Sequence record: PZ445439.1
Direction: 5' to 3' (one strand)
Length of the DNA: 64,000 bases
Origin: a phage
Numbering within the stretch: the first letter of the stretch is position 1; the number at the start of each line of letters is the position of its first letter. This document shows, piece by piece, positions 2,312 through 64,000 of the stretch. The notes beneath the pieces were generated by a model. The model worked only from the letters and a program-made list of their open reading frames with translations, did not search any database and was not told the DNA's origin. A program made the translations under genes and the position numbers.

Positions 2312-3636
2312 TTGATTTCCTCTAAATCTTTAGTGTATTCTGTAACTACATCAGTAGTTTTCCAATATTCGTTTTCTTCTTTTTTAGCTTTAGCTTCTTC
2401 AGCAAGTTTCTTTGCTTCGTCGGAAGTCATATGAAAAATGTTCATTCCAACTAGTTTATCAACATAAGAAGAATACATATCAATTTTAGAAAGTTCTTCG
2501 GTCAGTTCTTTACGAGTTTTACCTTGTACAACAATTTCACCTGAAATTACTTTCTTAATGAAATGTGCCTTGGCAAAGGCTAAACGAAATGCCGATTCAG
2601 TTTCTTTGATTTTGTTATCAATTCGTTTTTGGACATAAGTTTTACGAACTTCAACGAAGTCTTTGATTAAATCAACTACGTTATCGTAAACTTGTAGTTT
2701 TCCTTTCTCATTAATAACCGTAATATTCTGAGAACGACGCTCAATCAACCCGAAGTCTTTCATAATTTTTGCATGGCGTTCTTCTTCATTATCGCTCAAA
2801 GAATATTCTTTGCGGAATTTAACTTTGAATCCAAAACCGTGCTCACCGCAAGCATCATCCCATGTAATGAAGCCTTTATCTTCAAGTGGGTCTAAGATTT
2901 TACTCACATAAGTTTCACGATCATACTTATATGGAATCTCAGTGATATGCATTTGAGTTCGTGAAGTAAACTTATATGTTCCACGAATTTCATACTGCCC
3001 ATCAATTTCAACAACTTCACCACGAAATTCTGGGAATTCTACCTTCGGTTTAGTTACTCTCTTTCCTTGAAGAGCTTGCAGTACAGCTTTCTTAACAGAA
3101 GAAACGCTATGAGGAAGAATGTAAGTTGCATAACCAGTTGCAATACCGGAAACGCCATTAAGAAGAACAGTAGGAATAATAGGCAAATAGAAAGCAGGCG
3201 GAATGTGTTCTTTATCTTGATGTACCGGAGCATATTCAGTATCTTTATATACGTTATAGAAATTTTTACTTACACGAGCAAAAATATAACGACTTGCTGC
3301 TGCTTTTTGGACGGTACGAGAACCAAAGTTTCCTTGACCATCTAACAGAGGAAAGTTATTATTCCAAGTGTTAGCCATCAAAGCACCTGCGTCTTGCGCA
3401 GAGTTTTCACCATGATGATATCCAAGGTCCGCTACACCACCTGCAATAGAAGCGAGTTTGTGAAACTTATCTTTATTTCCTCGTGCCAAATCAAGAGCTC
3501 GAGCAATAACAAATCGTTGAACTGGCTTAAATCCGTCAATCATATTTGGGATAGCACGATTTTCAACCGTGTACATAGCATAAGCCAATGCTTCATTATC
3601 AATGATACTTTTTAAATCGCGATTATTCAGTTGCAT
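2308..3636 (-). CDS. 52: DNA topoisomerase II medium subunit gp52 (GyrA-like)
   Basis: 442 aa (same as T4 gp52); GFKPVQRFV...ARALD and active-site-region motifs of type II topoisomerase A subunit. Confidence 0.9.
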   Translation of the reverse strand: MQLNNRDLKSIIDNEALAYAMYTVENRAIPNMIDGFKPVQRFVIARALDLARGNKDKFHKLASIAGGVADLGYHHGENSAQDAGALMANTWNNNFPLLDGQGNFGSRTVQKAAASRYIFARVSKNFYNVYKDTEYAPVHQDKEHIPPAFYLPIIPTVLLNGVSGIATGYATYILPHSVSSVKKAVLQALQGKRVTKPKVEFPEFRGEVVEIDGQYEIRGTYKFTSRTQMHITEIPYKYDRETYVSKILDPLEDKGFITWDDACGEHGFGFKVKFRKEYSLSDNEEERHAKIMKDFGLIERRSQNITVINEKGKLQVYDNVVDLIKDFVEVRKTYVQKRIDNKIKETESAFRLAFAKAHFIKKVISGEIVVQGKTRKELTEELSKIDMYSSYVDKLVGMNIFHMTSDEAKKLAEEAKAKKEENEYWKTTDVVTEYTKDLEEIK

Positions 3637-3640
3637 AAAT

Positions 3641-3781
3641 TTACCATACTAGTGAATGTAGTGCCATAATAACATCAGAAATGAAAAGCACGACTTGAAT
3701 TAATCCGAACATTACTCCATAATATAGTGCTACCAATAAAGCAGCAAGGGCTAATGAATAGCCCAAGATTTTCTTAATCAT
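3641..3781 (-). CDS. small membrane peptide (about 46 aa)
   Basis: ATG embedded in the stop region of ac (AATGATTAA), ends 4 nt before gene 52; strongly hydrophobic. Confidence 0.3.
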   Translation of the reverse strand: MIKKILGYSLALAALLVALYYGVMFGLIQVVLFISDVIMALHSLVW

Positions 3782-3932
3782 TAGTAGATAACAACACAAA
3801 TGTTAAATATGCACACATACCCTGAGCTAAAGCTTGCGAAAACACACTGCTGGCATCAATACAGATAGTTAAAACACATGCTACTATCCAACAAATAAAT
3901 GAAATAACTCCTAATAATTTTGCGATATTCAT
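3774..3932 (-). CDS. ac: Ac-like small membrane protein (acridine sensitivity)
   Basis: about 52-aa hydrophobic ORF (MNIAKLLGVISFICWIVACVL...) between stp and 52, as in T4; GAGGAAAAT-ATG SD. Confidence 0.45.
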   Translation of the reverse strand: MNIAKLLGVISFICWIVACVLTICIDASSVFSQALAQGMCAYLTFVLLSTND

Positions 3933-3939
3933 ATTTTCC

Positions 3940-4020
3940 TCACTGGCGTCCGAAGACGCCTTTAGTTTTAAGATTATTACGATAGAACTGCATCACGTGT
4001 TCGTTGTGGAAATTACTCAT
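3940..4020 (-). CDS. stp: Stp peptide (26 aa), activator of the host PrrC anticodon nuclease pathway
   Basis: translation [26 protein letters not shown] equals recalled T4 Stp; start overlaps ndd stop (TAATG); missed by ORF track (too short). Confidence 0.8.
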
Positions 4021-4478
4021 TAATATGCCTGCAAAACAAATTTAAAGTTATCAGCCAACATACGGTTAATTTCTTCAAGTGTTTGATACTCAGAATGATG
4101 ATTACGAGTAAACGCTAAAGCTAACTGTCCTTTTCCAAATCCCGTCGTCAGAGGTTTCATCTTAGAAGCAGGCAGATAAAATACTGTGTATGGAACATTG
4201 TTATTTGCAATAGTACGTGCAAGCTGAGACCGACGTTGACGAATATGACTTAGAACTGCGCTGAATCCTTGCTTAGAACGTTGATTACCTACATAAAATC
4301 GTGCAGACACACATGGATTACTAAATGGACGACCATCTAATTTACTTACTAAAAAGTAAAATCCAGGTTTAGATAAAATATCTTTATGTGGAACTCCCAA
4401 AAACCATTCACCACCCTTGATTGTACCAATAACAGTTGCGCCTGCATTGTTCAGATCAGTAACAGTCATATATTTCAT
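4020..4478 (-). CDS. ndd: Ndd, nucleoid disruption protein
   Basis: ORF track 168 aa; internal start [18 protein letters not shown]... gives about 152 aa matching recalled T4 Ndd; GAGGAAAT SD before that ATG. Confidence 0.8.
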
Positions 4479-5987
4479 ATTAATTTCCTCTAAATTATTT
4501 TCTACTCCAAGGCCGCATGAATACACACGGCCATTAAATTAATCGTCGCAGTCGACGCTCAATTCCCAAAACTCTTCTACGGTATAAGTTTCAGTATCAT
4601 TTTCAATACAGAAACGTTCATTACTGTTATTTGCTAAAGTAGCGTTAACTGTCATTTTTTCGATAGTGCTCTTAAGAGGTGAAATACGAATTAACTGATC
4701 ACCGTTATCTAAACAAAAAATTTCACCAACTTTTACATCTTTAAAACTTTTCATAATTCACCTCAAGGAGTATAAAATCCGAATGCAGTTGTTGACCATC
4801 CCATCCAATGCGGAAAATTTGCGCCAATGTAAAACATAAGAATATAAAACCAACCGCTCAGCAAATTCATTATTTTACACCATTCCAAATTGTTTCAACC
4901 ACGGATTTTAAACCATTCTGGTGAATATCAATTCCGACTACTGTCATCAAATAGATTCCAACTACAACTGAACCTAATGCAAAAATCAGCATGAAAATGA
5001 ATAAAGCCGGAAAAATATTATCGAAAAACCATTCAATAAATGTAAAAGCACTGCGTTTACGCTTCATATTTTCCTCACATAAATCCAAAGTAAGCGTTTA
5101 ATACATCAATCATTAAAACGATTGGGAATATACTCAAAACTACTAGTATTATAACTACATTCCATATAGCTTTAACAATCTTTTTCATTTTCTGTTCCTC
5201 CGTAGTTGATAGGGTAATAGTACCACAGAGGAACAGTCTTGTAAACAACTTTTTTAAAAATATTCGTAATAAATGTGAATACCAATCACTACTGCCGAAA
5301 CTTGCGCAACCCACCATGCACAAGCAATAAGTACAGAATTCAAAATTTTCATAATAACCTCATCACAAAAGTAAATGTTAAACAAATTAATGGAATACTA
5401 ATTAACCAAACAAAACACCACCATAATGAACTCATAATTCAATCTCAGCGATTTTCATTTCATTACTATTAATAGCCTCTTTAAGACTATCTAAAAGAAT
5501 TACATTCCAGTGGTCATTCATATGACCATTAACTAAGCGTGTAATTTCTTCAGGAGTTGAAAAATAAGGCTGATCAGACTCCCAGTGCGATAATCCTAAG
5601 CGGGTATAAATCATACCTTCATCATCACTAGAATATTCAACTGACACAAACTCATCAGTTGTTTTATGTTTAGCGTAATAAAATTTAAATTTCATTTTAT
5701 TCAATAATCCGCTAAAAGATCGACGATTGCATCACGAAGACATTTATTCGCAATACGTTTAAGAGCAATTTCAGTTTCAGGCGCATTTCGAATAATCATT
5801 GAATTCAATTCAGCTTCGGCAAACTGAAGTTCTTTGACTAATTCAGCTTTATATTTTCCTTGACCTTTCTTAGCTTTTGCTCGTTTTAATTCAGCTGTAG
5901 TAAACATTTTGTTCTCCAAATCCGTATCAGTTGATAGGGTAATAGTACCACAGTCCTTGTGGTATGTAAACCATTTTGTGAAAATTT

Positions 5988-20735: not shown

Positions 20736-22846
20736 TATTTTGCCCAGGGAGCCCAGGGCGGAGGGTCAAGATGGTATGAAGCTAGTTCTTCTAGAAGAGC
20801 ATCTGGGGCTTCAATTCCATAATTCTGTAATACTATACGGTACTCTTTCTTATAATCACTAGAATCATTCTGGATATTCGTAGAATGATTATCTTCTAAC
20901 ATCTCAAATAAATCCATATTAATTCCTAGCGATAAAAACCAAAATGACGATTAGCTTCAGCAATCTTTCTTTCTTCTTCGGACATTCTCCATCGTAGTCC
21001 AACATCAAAATGAGCCCAGACCATCCTAACAAATGCATTTATATCTTTAATATCTTCAATAATGAATGTTTTACTTTTAGAAGGTTGACTCGCTAATTTA
21101 ACTTTATCGTCTTCAAACATGTCAAAAAGACCATATTCATGAGCTCTTTTATAGCCTTTAATAGTTAAAGCTTCAGAAGAAGAAAATGGTGAATCTGTAT
21201 TCTGCAAAATATCTTCAGTATGCTTTATAATTAGAATAATATTTTCTGGATATTTTCTTTCTTTTATATCTTTAATTAAAATATCCGGATTTTCTGCTAA
21301 AGGAATAATTAATGAGCATTTTTTATCAAGTGTATTTACTGATTTACCTTCTTTAGACATAAATTCTATTGAATAATGTTTTGCTACTTCAATCATGGGA
21401 TTTCCTTTTGCCTACTAATGGACCATCGGGAATTTTGTTTTCCTGGATATATTTCTCATTTTCTTCCATCATTTTACTGCCAATTTTAAGAAGCAAATCT
21501 AAGGCTTCATTTGCTTTAGCTTTAGCCTCTTCTAACGTCATGTTCTTGTTCATGATTTATCCCCATAGATGTCTCTCATCAATTTAAGTGCTGAGCGTTC
21601 TAATTTCTTTTCTTTCTCAGCACTAATCATTGATTTCATCCATTCTTCCGATTCGTTCTGCATTTCTTTATTTGCCTGTTCAACCCAACCATCGTCAATA
21701 TACATTGAGTTTGGTCTATTGAACCATTCAAGCATTTTCTTCAGAACTTTCATTTGTTTTACCTAAAACAATAGTAGGAGCATCGTCAAATTCATGAATT
21801 TTTAGCAATTTTGGATTTAAATTATTCCATACATAATAAATAAAGTATGATAAAGCATCTTCACTCGCAATTATAAATTTATTTCCTTCATTTATTTTCC
21901 AGTCATATACTGAATCGTACGAATAAAAAGATAAAGGATTACCATTATATTGTTCTGCGCTAACATTAATGTATTCGGATTTAGTAAATGCTTCAATTGC
22001 TCTAAACGGACTATTTGGCACAGTTTCAATAATTCCGATCTTTTTAAGTTTTATTTCAACATCTTCTGGAACTGGCATTGAAACGAAATTTTCTACGAGA
22101 TACATAGGGTTACAATAACCCTTATCAATCACTACGGCTACAGTAATTGGAACATCTTTAGCAAACGACATGCTATTACTGCTAATATACATTTCAAACA
22201 AAATTGCTTCCATAATTTTCCTCAATCACAAGATGTAGATGAACAGCTAGAATCACAAGAACTTCCGCATGAATCACCTGCCCATACATGAACAGGGACA
22301 TTTGTATCATATGAATCAGAACTAGACTGTGTATTCTGTGCATTAGATGATGTAGTAGGTACTGACCAGCGCCAAGGATTTTTATAATATTCTTGGGCTT
22401 CTTCATAAGTCATAGTAACTGCTTCTACTGTTCCATCTCCCATATAAACATACTCAACTACAGTTAAAGGAAGGTAGTCATTTGAAATAGGAACTACACC
22501 TTCTCCCGGAGTTGTAGAGAAAAAATCTGTAAAGAAATTTTTAAACCAATTAAAGATAAACATTACAAAAAGCCTCTTTGAAATTCGACTCTTTGAAATC
22601 CACCCCAGTCAGTATATCGCATTTCAGCATTGAACTCGACTGAACCATCTGCATGCATCATGAATGAATGCGTGACGACATCACAATCCCAGCTTTTCAT
22701 ACCCCATTTATCAGAGATAGCTTTATCAAGAACCTTCTGAAGGTCTTCATTTGGTTTAATCCAACGATTTAACATAGTGTTCTCCTCTATAAGATATTTT
22801 TATTATACCACACTCATTTTGACATGTAAACCATAAAATGAAAAAA

Positions 22847-24338: not shown

Positions 24339-25363
24339 ATCTTAGCATATTTAGATAGCCGCATTTTAGCCATCAACCCCTGGGCAATATTATTTTTCAT
24401 ATATTCCATAATTTGTTCAGGGGTTGCACCTTCCTTTCTAATCATATCATTAACATCTTTTGATTTCCAGGGAGATTTATCCCAAAACATAACCCTTTCT
24501 CCTGCATCAACTAATTTAGTCATTCGTTTGATAGTGTCAGGGTGACGAGGTTCATTATCTAAAACCCACACTCGTCTATCTTTAAATGGAACAACTTCTA
24601 GGTCTAATTGACCACCCGTAATAGCTATACCATTTTCAATAAAAAGTGAATCTATAGGTCCTTCTAGAACATATACATCACCATCTTTAACTCGTTCGAC
24701 TCCATATATTTTTGTTGCCTCAGGATAAGCTTTGATGGTGATATATTTTTGAGGAGCATCTTTCTTTAATGCACGTCCTTGAAAAGACTCAGCTTTTCCA
24801 TTAGCATTATAAATTGGAATAACAAGACGAGGCTCAGAAATTTCCTTTTTGTATGTTCCCGGTGCTATGCTATTAACTAATTTAGGCCATTCGGTTGTAA
24901 ACCAAAGATATTTCCATTTATCCTTTGGAATACAACGAGCTTTTACATATTTTATAATTGGATGGTCTTCCGCCAGTTTATCTAATCTAACGCATGACGG
25001 AAGAGATTTAATTATTTTCTTCTCAGGTTGTTTAGGAAGTTCTTTAGGTTTTTCTACTGGACGACTTTTACCTTTTTCTTTTCTTATTTCAAAGATATAC
25101 TCACGATATAAATCAGGTTCAAACTCCTTTAAATATATTCCGATTGGTGCATGATAGTTACAGTTATAACAATGAATATTTCCTTCATTATTATCACCAT
25201 AATACCATCCACGAGCTTTATTCTGGTCGGTTTTTGAATCTCCACAAACAGGGCATCTAAACCGTAATTTAAAAGTTGAACTATTATTTACTTGTGTGAA
25301 TTTAGGTAAATGAGCTAATGCACGGTATGCAAACTCATTATCAATCCAAGGTATTGATGACAT
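24335..25363 (-). CDS. 61: DNA primase gp61
   Basis: 342 aa as in T4; N-terminal zinc ribbon CPVCGDS...CYNC and Toprim-like core. Confidence 0.9.
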   Translation of the reverse strand: MSSIPWIDNEFAYRALAHLPKFTQVNNSSTFKLRFRCPVCGDSKTDQNKARGWYYGDNNEGNIHCYNCNYHAPIGIYLKEFEPDLYREYIFEIRKEKGKSRPVEKPKELPKQPEKKIIKSLPSCVRLDKLAEDHPIIKYVKARCIPKDKWKYLWFTTEWPKLVNSIAPGTYKKEISEPRLVIPIYNANGKAESFQGRALKKDAPQKYITIKAYPEATKIYGVERVKDGDVYVLEGPIDSLFIENGIAITGGQLDLEVVPFKDRRVWVLDNEPRHPDTIKRMTKLVDAGERVMFWDKSPWKSKDVNDMIRKEGATPEQIMEYMKNNIAQGLMAKMRLSKYAKI

Positions 25364-25531
25364 TTTTACTCTTCTTTTTCTTTAGATTCCTCTTTTTTCT
25401 TTTTAGGAATCTGTTCAGGACCTTTATTTACTACAGCGCCTGACGTTGTTCCAGTAGAGATATTTTCAGGATTACCACCTGAATCTCCAGCGACCATATC
25501 TTCTTTGATAAATTCTTTATATGTTTTCATA

Positions 25532-25888
25532 TTAACCTCTATTCATAAAAGCATTAAAAATTTGGTCATCAATAGATGGTGCAGTAATATTTTCTGCATC
25601 ATTTAGCAAATCATTAATTTCATCAGATAGCATAACACATGTACCTTTATTTCCTGTAATTGTTACTGCACAATTACGAACGTTTTCTTTATCAAATTTT
25701 AGGTTAATATTTTCGTAGTGAAAATCCTTTAATGCCGAATATATCTTTAAAATAAAATTGTCTTTTACTACAATAAACCCAACCTCACTATTAAAACGTG
25801 GTTCATGGAAACTGTAATAAACCTTTTCATCTATAAAATCGTATGAAATTTTTTCCATTTTTAAATATGAAAATTCAGAACTATACAT
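25532..25888 (-). CDS. hypothetical protein (61.1/61.2 region), shares C-terminal module with next ORF
   Basis: 118 aa ending IDDQIFNAFMNRG; about 40 nt of near-identical DNA at the 3' end shared with 25890-26537. Confidence 0.4.
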   Translation of the reverse strand: MYSSEFSYLKMEKISYDFIDEKVYYSFHEPRFNSEVGFIVVKDNFILKIYSALKDFHYENINLKFDKENVRNCAVTITGNKGTCVMLSDEINDLLNDAENITAPSIDDQIFNAFMNRG

Positions 25889-25889
25889 A

Positions 25890-26537
25890 TTAACCTTTAT
25901 TCATAAAAGCATTAAAAATTTGATCGTCAATAGAAACTTTTACTTTAGGCTGTTCTTCAAACGGTAATTCATATCCACATATTACAATTTTGTGATCGAT
26001 ACCAAAATACACAGAAGCAATATGATTAATATTATTTTCAGTGAAATCTAAATCAACATCAATATCTTTTTGACTAACGCTCAAAGGATAATTAATACGA
26101 ATAATTCGATTATCTTTAACAAAGATTCCACCGACATACTCTGTGTTGCGTTTAAAGTTTACACGTTTCCTAAATGAAAAATATTCAGGTTCTTTATGAG
26201 CCCGACTCATAGGACACAATGAGTAGCTAGAATAAGAGATGTCAAATCCTACACCTTCAATATGAATATGAGCCAACGTGTCATGATTAAACCAATTATA
26301 ATCATATGCCAAATCCATTATATTGTAATATGTGAAAGGCACCGGATTAACATCATATGTTGTACCTTTAAAATCTGCCCAGGCAACGATTTCGTTATCT
26401 TTAACAATTACAAAAATTGTGCCAATAAGATATCCACGGTTATTTTCATCAGGTGTTATATTATAACATTGTGCATCAGGAAATTTACCGTATTTAAACG
26501 GTGGATTTTTGTGCATATAATAAATCATATTATTCAC
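25890..26537 (-). CDS. hypothetical protein (61.1/61.2 region)
   Basis: 215 aa ending IDDQIFNAFMNKG. Confidence 0.4.
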   Translation of the reverse strand: MNNMIYYMHKNPPFKYGKFPDAQCYNITPDENNRGYLIGTIFVIVKDNEIVAWADFKGTTYDVNPVPFTYYNIMDLAYDYNWFNHDTLAHIHIEGVGFDISYSSYSLCPMSRAHKEPEYFSFRKRVNFKRNTEYVGGIFVKDNRIIRINYPLSVSQKDIDVDLDFTENNINHIASVYFGIDHKIVICGYELPFEEQPKVKVSIDDQIFNAFMNKG

Positions 26538-26823
26538 CTGTGATTTCGGTTACGATATTTTTGTTATTAAAGTTTTTATCGCAATACAGAACATAATTAT
26601 ACTGCATTACACCACCAGACTTAAGTTGTTTTTGCACTTCAGCTTTCATTTCAGGACGATCGCGCTCAACGATATTCATAATATCTGCTTCAATTTGGGT
26701 TTCAACTTCAGTCTGATCCGCAGTCATAGACCATTCGCACAAATCTTTATCATAGCCTGCCATAGCAGGCTGAGCAGCACAAGAAGCCAAAGTAAAAATT
26801 GTAGCAAAAATAAATTTTTTCAT
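26530..26823 (-). CDS. sp: Spackle-like periplasmic protein (superinfection exclusion), tentative
   Basis: 97 aa with N-terminal signal peptide, at the 61.3 position between 61 and dmd. Confidence 0.5.
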   Translation of the reverse strand: MKKFIFATIFTLASCAAQPAMAGYDKDLCEWSMTADQTEVETQIEADIMNIVERDRPEMKAEVQKQLKSGGVMQYNYVLYCDKNFNNKNIVTEITGE

Positions 26824-26883
26824 GATAATCTCCTCAGTAGTTTATGTTTATATAGTATCTCAATTTCCAACAAAAGTAAACAG

Positions 26884-27183
26884 CTATTTTAAAACTTCTG
26901 CATAATCACATGTTACAAACTGTTTCTCTAGCTTGACGATTTTACGAAAGTATCTTTTGCATTGGCGAATCTGTCGCTTCGTGGGGCGAACAGCAAACTT
27001 AATAAATTCCACTCGACCAAATGGAGGACTTTCTTCTGCTGGAATATCTAACACCAATTCCCACGTATCTGCAATAAGTGCTTTGAATTGAGTATTTTTC
27101 CTGACGTTATACGGAGTAGGTTTAAATAAAACAATATGCATATTATCCTCGGCAATCCACTTCGCACACTTTCTTGTCATCAA
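26884..27183 (-). CDS. hypothetical basic protein adjacent to dmd (61.4 position)
   Basis: 99-aa ORF overlapping the dmd 3' end; basic composition. Confidence 0.35.
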   Translation of the reverse strand: MMTRKCAKWIAEDNMHIVLFKPTPYNVRKNTQFKALIADTWELVLDIPAEESPPFGRVEFIKFAVRPTKRQIRQCKRYFRKIVKLEKQFVTCDYAEVLK

Positions 27184-27325
27184 TGAAAGCTTTAACTAAT
27201 GCTTTATTAACTTCAGCATATTGAGTAGTAGCCCATTGAACGTCATCTTTCATCATTGTGATTTCTTTAGTAAACATGCTTTCATTCTTAAACCACCCCA
27301 TAAAAACTACCTTTACCAATTCCAT
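27143..27325 (-). CDS. dmd: Dmd, antitoxin against host RnlA/LsoA RNase toxins
   Basis: 60 aa, MELVKVVFMGWFKNESMF... consistent with recalled T4 Dmd; early promoter upstream. Confidence 0.7.
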   Translation of the reverse strand: MELVKVVFMGWFKNESMFTKEITMMKDDVQWATTQYAEVNKALVKAFIDDKKVCEVDCRG

Positions 27326-27339
27326 AACAATCTCCTCAT

Positions 27340-27380
27340 TTAACCAACAAGACTACTATACCATAGTCTTGTCAGCTTGT
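27340..27380 (-). promoter_or_regulatory. early promoter upstream of dmd
   Basis: minus strand GTTTAC ... TGG-TATAGT. Confidence 0.5.
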
Positions 27381-27383
27381 AAA

Positions 27384-28811
27384 CTAAAATTTTAATTCAT
27401 TTGCCAAAGCATCTAACTGAGCTCGAGTGGATTCATTTCTTTGATAGCGATTCTGCTCAGCCTGAATCTGTTGTGAACCTGCTACTTCACTCACTTCAGT
27501 TGGAGTAGAATCTTGTTCAATTTCTACCCATTTTTGATTTCCTTTTTGAACACCCATCAAAAACTTATTCCACTTATTCTTATCACCATATCGTGATTTG
27601 ATTTGCTTAATGAGTTGTTGTTCAGCAGCTGCTAGCTCCTCGGTTTCAATGACCGCAAGCATAAAATCAGCTGTTGCTGGAAGACCAGCAGATTCTGCAA
27701 TATCGCTCATGTTAACATCGGAAGAGTCCCAAGCTTGTTTACCAACCTGTGCTGCAGTCCAAAGAACAGTTTCGGTTTCAACAGCCAGAGCACGCAATTC
27801 CTCTGCGATAGCTTTAACAGTTGTGTAACTATTTTCTGAATAAACTCTAATGCGGCAAGATTTACAAATACCTAGATAGTCGACAATAATGATTGTTGGA
27901 ACAAAATTCTTCTTGAGCTTTAATTCATTTAAAAGTGATCGAAATGTATTAGCGTCTGCTCCACCAGTAGGATATTGCTTAACGATTAAACGACCAAGGG
28001 TAGATTTCTCACGCCATTTTTCCATTTTTCCTTTATACTCAGCGTAAGAAATATGCCCATCATCAATGTCATCAAGAGAAACATCGAGCATGTTAGCATC
28101 AATACGTTTAGCACAGACTTCTTCTGCCATTTCCATGGAGATATAAAGAACGTTATGACCAAGCTGCAAATAATCTGCTGCCAATGAACACAGACCTAAT
28201 GACTTACCAACGTTAACGCCAGCCATTAAAACGTTCAGTGTTCCAGTCTCAGCTCCACCTTTCGTAATTTTGTTTAGAATTCTGAGTTTAAATGGAACCT
28301 TACGAGCTTTATTCATATAAGATAGCCAACGCGCTTCATAGTCATCCATCCAATCATGACCAACGTAGCTATCAAATGAAATTGATAATGCTTGGCGCAT
28401 GATGTCAGGAATAGCACCTACATCTGGCATTTTCTTATTTCGTTTTTCCGGAGGAAGCTCAGCATTAGTTTGAATTTCGATTATTTTAGACGTAGCATTA
28501 AACATCGCCCTTTGCTGAACATATTTTTCTGTTTCTTTTACTAACCAGCTGTGGTCTTCTGGAGAATCAGCCAGTTTTGAAATAAGTGTTTTTACACCAG
28601 AATATTCTGTTTCAGTAAATGAACTATTTTCTAATGCAACATTTAACGCATTAATAGATGGAACGCTATGATACTCATTAACATGAGATTTAATTAATTT
28701 GAATGTATTTTTAGCTGGACCACTTTCAAAATATTCTGAATCCATATATGGCCAAACTTTTGAAAAATAAGCTTGATCAAATATGAGATGAGAAAGAATA
28801 ATTTCTACCAC
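27384..28811 (-). CDS. 41: replicative DNA helicase gp41 (DnaB family)
   Basis: 475 aa as in T4; Walker A GAGVNVGKS, RecA-like fold motifs. Confidence 0.9.
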   Translation of the reverse strand: MVEIILSHLIFDQAYFSKVWPYMDSEYFESGPAKNTFKLIKSHVNEYHSVPSINALNVALENSSFTETEYSGVKTLISKLADSPEDHSWLVKETEKYVQQRAMFNATSKIIEIQTNAELPPEKRNKKMPDVGAIPDIMRQALSISFDSYVGHDWMDDYEARWLSYMNKARKVPFKLRILNKITKGGAETGTLNVLMAGVNVGKSLGLCSLAADYLQLGHNVLYISMEMAEEVCAKRIDANMLDVSLDDIDDGHISYAEYKGKMEKWREKSTLGRLIVKQYPTGGADANTFRSLLNELKLKKNFVPTIIIVDYLGICKSCRIRVYSENSYTTVKAIAEELRALAVETETVLWTAAQVGKQAWDSSDVNMSDIAESAGLPATADFMLAVIETEELAAAEQQLIKQIKSRYGDKNKWNKFLMGVQKGNQKWVEIEQDSTPTEVSEVAGSQQIQAEQNRYQRNESTRAQLDALANELKF

Positions 28812-63824: not shown

Positions 63825-64000
63825 TACATGCTCCTTTGAATAATATCAATAATGTTGTTCACCAGATTATAAGTAAACATTGGGTAATTATATTGAATCA
63901 TCACATACACAACAAACAAAACTTTCATTCTCTTCTCCTTGGCAGTTGACAAGATTACTATACCATAACCTTGCCAACTTGTAAACCGTTAAATGTTGTT

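Follow-up and report, generated by a model that had tools for sequence, protein, structure and literature searches.

The dmd-tifA-sp region of a T4-like coliphage, nearly identical to a published anti-toxin island and the adjacent superinfection-exclusion gene sp

[quoted passage not shown] Phage T4 that evolved to escape ToxIN did so by tandem amplification of the early operon dmd-61.4, and 61.4 was renamed tifA, for ToxN inhibitory factor A (Srikant et al., eLife 2022, PMC9391042). In the same study, the 85-aa TifA alone restored T4 plaquing on +toxIN cells and rescued cells from ToxN, the protein co-immunoprecipitated with ToxN, and the loss of tifA made T4 sensitive to chromosomal toxIN. 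An early promoter located before dmd drives the dmd-tifA operon, and a promoter downstream of tifA is also mentioned (PMC9391042).

TifA is described as binding both ToxN and RNA, with RNA binding needed for inhibition (Guegler et al., NAR 2024, PMC10853763). A K55A R56A R59A mutant of RB69 TifA is named under the RNA-seq methods of that work, and its authors propose a model in which TifA keeps ToxN trapped on RNA, 16S rRNA in particular, as part of a ribonucleoprotein complex. Neutralization of ToxN is reported for the TifA proteins of T4, T2, T6, and RB69 (PMC9391042; PMC10853763). TifA homologues vary in the ToxN proteins that they neutralize, so ToxN specificity is in principle dependent on the allele. 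Position 41 tunes the potency of the protein; F41, found in T4, is weak, and S or H is stronger.

The T4 protein Dmd mimics an antitoxin and directly inhibits two endoribonuclease toxins, RnlA and LsoA (PMC5308261; PMC9391042). Together with tifA and adfA (61.2), dmd may form an "anti-TA island" (PMC9391042). In AdfA, a His at the position equivalent to RB69 R164 is the DarT1-neutralizing allele (PMC11257639). Spackle, the product of sp (61.3), is described as a protein of the periplasm that stoichiometrically inhibits the lysozyme domain of the tail protein gp5 (Shi et al., PMC7677548). The mature T4 protein has 75 aa and a C29-C81 disulfide pair, and it contacts gp5 through S32-A35, Q37, and N76 (PMC7677548).

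The DNA examined here is a 64,000-nt stretch of a T4-like coliphage (PZ445439.1), called the window below, with ORFs called by the longest-ORF rule. The comparison with the described systems covered sequence identity or near-identity, the order and start sites of the genes, promoter motifs, and published functional residues. The locus is read as the standard T-even early block, in the order 41, dmd, tifA, sp, and adfA, with two independent protections made within minutes of infection (probability about 95%). The T4 reference region used for alignment has the order 41, dmd, 61.4, sp, 61.2, 61.1, and 61.

A megablast search with 26530-27325 against a phage collection matched 653 records; the best match, with 100% identity from end to end of the region, is Escherichia phage FelixPlatter (Bas40, MZ501065.1), a Tequatrovirus. 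The three genes are labeled in MZ501065.1 as "periplasmic protein spackle", "hypothetical protein" (258 nt), and "anti-immunity antitoxin Dmd". In the window, dmd, tifA, and sp lie downstream of the gp41 helicase gene, and every ORF of interest between 25500 and 28500 is on the minus strand, including three further ORFs of 215, 118, and 54 aa. The coordinates of the features are given in Table 1.

Table 1. Coordinates of genes and promoter motifs around dmd, tifA, and sp, as positions in the window.
Feature	Coordinates	Strand	Basis or location
gp41-type helicase, 475 aa	27384-28811	-	474/475 identical to T4 gp41
Early promoter motif, GTTTAC-N18-TATAGT, TGG before the -10	27355-27384	-	upstream of dmd
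dmd (61.5), 60 aa	27143-27325	-	T4 alignment, Pfam, PDB
Longest-ORF extension, 14 codons, non-coding for TifA	27142-27183	-	within dmd, other frame
tifA (61.4), 85 aa, pI 9.8	26884-27141	-	T4 alignment, Pfam, PHROGs
Early promoter motif, GTTTAC-N18-TACTAT	26852-26881	-	60-bp tifA-sp gap
sp (61.3), 97-aa precursor (signal peptide 1-22, mature 75 aa)	26530-26823	-	
adfA (61.2), 212 aa	25890-26528	-	Pfam AdfA 1.3e-136
Half-size AdfA paralogue, 118 aa	25532-25888	-	phrog_4122 2.1e-72

The original prediction placed an sp-like gene, a 99-aa ORF (26884-27183), and dmd within 26530-27325, and three minus-strand ORFs are present there, at 26530-26823, 26884-27183 (by the longest-ORF rule), and 27143-27325. 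All are real genes, with Pfam matches to T4_Spackle (PF25676, 5.8e-45), DUF7279 (2.3e-20, 72.7 bits against a cut-off of 24.5), and Dmd (PF17587, 1.6e-46), respectively. Dmd, TifA, and Sp are each encoded once in the window and once per matched record, with no amplification of the type seen in ToxIN escape.

Dmd is identical to T4 Dmd at all 60 residues of the translated-protein alignment, and the name given to this gene at the outset was correct. PHROGs also returns Dmd, and the protein matches the solved structure 5hy3_B, "Antitoxin Dmd" (1.8e-37). The T4 Dmd used for this comparison is the protein whose complex with LsoA has been solved. Genomic position is also the same as that of T4 gp61.5, and there is no difference at the protein level. 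Since the proteins are identical, results obtained with T4 Dmd should apply directly to the Dmd of the window.

Sp had likewise been named correctly, as a 97-aa protein with an N-terminal signal peptide. It is identical to T4 Spackle (gp61.3) at 91 of 97 residues (94%), is assigned to spackle by PHROGs, and matches the Spackle structures 6x6o, 6xc0, 6xc1, and 7cn6. The signal peptide reads MKKFIFATIFTLASCAAQPAMA|GYD and has the AMA|G cleavage context of T4 Spackle. In the alignment with 7cn6_A, the crystal chain of the mature protein, the match begins at residue 23, in agreement with a cut after AQPAMA. Like the T4 protein, Sp keeps C29 and C81 and the contact residues S32-A35, Q37, and N76, as read against PMC7677548. 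Unlike it, Sp carries six substitutions: A11T in the signal peptide, K53E, and I91V, A92T, V94I, and V95T in the C-terminal tail. None of the six falls at the contact residues named in PMC7677548. With 94% identity to the T4 protein, Sp is predicted to inhibit gp5 lysozyme and to exclude superinfecting phages.

The middle protein is identical to T4 gp61.4 (TifA) at 84 of 85 residues in the alignment of the 85-aa version and is 57% identical to RB69 TifA. The original prediction had offered this basic ORF beside dmd as a toxin-neutralizing candidate, possibly the T4 ToxIN inhibitor, and had proposed comparing it with T4 proteins adjacent to dmd; that comparison returns gp61.4, and the candidate is borne out at the level of homology. 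The protein is indeed basic, with 17 Lys and Arg residues against 9 Asp and Glu. PHROGs assigns it to phrog_2375 (unknown function, 2.4e-38), and a search of solved structures gave no match to TifA, even at E <= 1. A tblastn search found homologues in 675 phage records, and several of these match the window protein at 100% identity. Among the matches listed, tifA is labeled "hypothetical protein" or has an equally uninformative name, with one exception. This exception, ON782582.1, labels tifA "DNA primase/helicase", which is likely an annotation error.

The features described for T4 TifA are present in the window protein. The gene is found one base after dmd, as in T4, and its place directly downstream of dmd in an early operon is shared with T4, T2, and RB69. 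The protein has the basic motif RPTKRQIRQCKRYFRK and the F41 allele of T4, and its central basic cluster VRPTKRQIRQCKRYFRK contains the RNA-binding residues K55, R56, and R59. These three residues are invariant in five homologues (window, T4, RB69, JS98, and W143), as is PTKRQIRQ-KR-FRK. The sole difference from T4 TifA is the conservative substitution I83V. It lies in a C-terminal extension that the window and T4 proteins share, whereas RB69 TifA is without it, and I83V is unlikely to affect ToxN specificity. Judged by 99% identity to T4 TifA, the protein would neutralize ToxN and bind both ToxN and RNA. A literature search for ToxIN tests of Bas40 found no published one.

The extent of tifA and the nature of its product each allow another reading. 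By the longest-ORF rule, the middle ORF does run over 26884-27183, giving the 99 aa originally predicted; the gene itself has 85 aa and ends its upstream extent at 27141. It had also been described as overlapping the end of dmd. There is no such overlap in the 85-aa gene, where the ATG (27141) follows the dmd stop codon by one base (TAAtATG; context GAGGATAAtATG). An N-terminally extended TifA of 98 or 99 aa, started from a TTG or ATG inside dmd (27183 or 27180) and so overlapping it, would draw on the 18 open codons that precede the ATG in this frame, and on the upstream TTG and ATG found in the window, T4, and W143 (the ATG also in mar005P1). This extension lies wholly inside the dmd coding sequence and is open for that reason. 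When the start contexts of five phages were compared, JS98, where tifA is 140 nt from dmd, was found to have a stop codon directly before the homologous ATG; the 14-codon upstream frame is thus open only because it runs through dmd. A GAGGA Shine-Dalgarno sequence is located 5 nt before the ATG in every homologue examined, and the curated records all annotate the ATG start (T4, T2, RB69, and FelixPlatter, with 85 aa in T4 and FelixPlatter). In addition, a clone of the 85-aa ORF of T4 functions by itself and depends on the ATG to do so (PMC9391042). The 99-aa reading was rejected on the JS98 stop, the GAGGA site, and the curated starts, and an extended protein is considered very improbable. That tifA might instead work as an RNA, as a toxI-like decoy or a competitive ToxN substrate, is suggested by the fact that the natural antitoxin of ToxN is an RNA and by a putative ToxN cleavage site within the T4 tifA mRNA (PMC9391042). 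Against this, T4 tifA loses its activity when the start codon is deleted, remains active when recoded at 55 of 258 nt, and is unaffected by removal of the ToxN site (PMC9391042). Action as an RNA is refuted for T4 tifA, and, with the window protein 84/85 identical to that of T4, it has next to no chance of applying here.

A further question about this block, with tifA taken as an 85-aa protein-coding gene, is whether sp, tifA, and dmd make up one superinfection-exclusion and anti-toxin module, co-regulated from a single promoter. The three lie side by side on one strand and are all early genes. No intrinsic terminators were predicted in 25300-27500, and with none between tifA and sp, read-through into sp is possible. 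The scan of the whole window for the T4 early-promoter motif GTTTAC-N18-TANNNT nevertheless places a second motif (26852-26881) between tifA and sp, in addition to that upstream of dmd, and the single early promoter originally claimed for all three genes was rejected as stated. The linkage of sp to tifA is also loose. The order dmd, tifA, sp, adfA is conserved in the Tequatroviruses T4, T2, and W143, in the Mosigviruses RB69 and mar005P1, and in the Dhakavirus JS98, with the tifA-sp gap as a variable slot into which nothing is inserted in T4, T2, or the window phage. Insertions are found there in Mosigvirus and in W143. This variable slot points to dmd-tifA as a tight unit with sp as a neighbor outside it. 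Moreover, Sp targets phage lysozyme from within the periplasm, with no TA link known from the account in PMC7677548. One co-regulated module of all three genes is therefore improbable, and the preferred reading is that dmd-tifA and sp each have their own early promoter, as assigned by motif match.

The genes that occupy the tifA-sp slot differ among these phages. In RB69 and mar005P1, the slot holds the superinfection-immunity genes imm.1 and imm (1774-2452 in locus L004 and 3512-4190 in locus L007), which are located elsewhere in T4-type phages. In W143, it is filled by another ORF of 84 aa (1819-2073 in locus L006).

The early-promoter motif has 18 matches in the window, against 0.95 expected by chance, and all are on the minus strand, so the whole window looks like a minus-strand early region. 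Among the sigma-70-like sites of the region, the motif upstream of dmd ranks first (10/12, with an extended TG). The motif in the tifA-sp gap falls below the threshold of a generic sigma-70 scan, which alone would miss it, and it fits the mention of a promoter downstream of tifA in PMC9391042. Other examples are found at 2076-2105, 5217-5246, 22802-22831, and 63957-63986, and most of the 18 matches have TGG before the -10.

The TAAtATG stop/start junction of dmd/tifA (27139-27145) is also observed at sp/adfA (26526-26532), at adfA/118-aa ORF (25886-25892), and at 118-aa ORF/61.1 (25528-25534), all on the minus strand. These four junctions suggest translational coupling along the block.

With adfA, the window has the same set and order of genes, dmd, tifA, and adfA, as the "anti-TA island" of T4-like phages. 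Full-length AdfA has a His (H169) at the position equivalent to RB69 R164. Bas35 to Bas47, the window phage included, are resistant to DarTG1 (PMC11257639). Unlike T4, which is without the short form, the window phage and many Tequatroviruses carry an AdfA paralogue of 118 aa between adfA and 61.1, here in tandem with full-length adfA. The 118-aa protein (25532-25888) is 36% identical to AdfA residues 113-212, matches Pfam AdfA at 1.1e-7, and shares with AdfA an identical C-terminal SIDDQIFNAFMN[KR]G motif; an Asn is found at the position equivalent to AdfA H/R164. The short form is present in 337 phage records. In T2, it is the only AdfA-like gene and is annotated "61.2", though T2 is described as without adfA. 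The paralogue may be a candidate for a further anti-toxin factor, e.g., for a different DarT or another toxin, an idea put forward from sequence as rather unlikely.

The proposed course of events follows the T4 and RB69 experiments, from which the activities of Dmd, TifA, and Sp are transferred by homology. Host RNA polymerase would transcribe the dmd-tifA operon from its early promoter. Dmd would bind RnlA and LsoA, substituting for the labile antitoxins RnlB and LsoB that are lost once the phage has shut off the host. TifA, a basic protein of 85 aa that binds RNA, would bind ToxN once the toxI RNA antitoxin decays. Under the published model, it would then keep ToxN on RNA, especially 16S rRNA, within a large ribonucleoprotein complex, leaving phage mRNAs uncut. 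After export to the periplasm, Spackle would bind the gp5 lysozyme domain carried by the tails of incoming T-even phages, and superinfection would be blocked.

The locus is a near-identical, ordinary copy of the published "anti-toxin island"; it is already known and holds no new biology. The original prediction correctly recognized a published counter-defense locus from raw sequence. The useful outcomes are a corrected tifA gene model, a layout with two promoters, and a name that reflects function for a gene mostly labeled "hypothetical"; the middle gene is better annotated as tifA (ToxN inhibitor, 85 aa). With F41, the weaker T4-type allele, the phage should overcome ToxIN at chromosomal levels, not when borne on a high-copy plasmid. 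The predicted T4-like sensitivity to strongly expressed ToxIN would matter for the choice of phage on hosts that carry toxIN.
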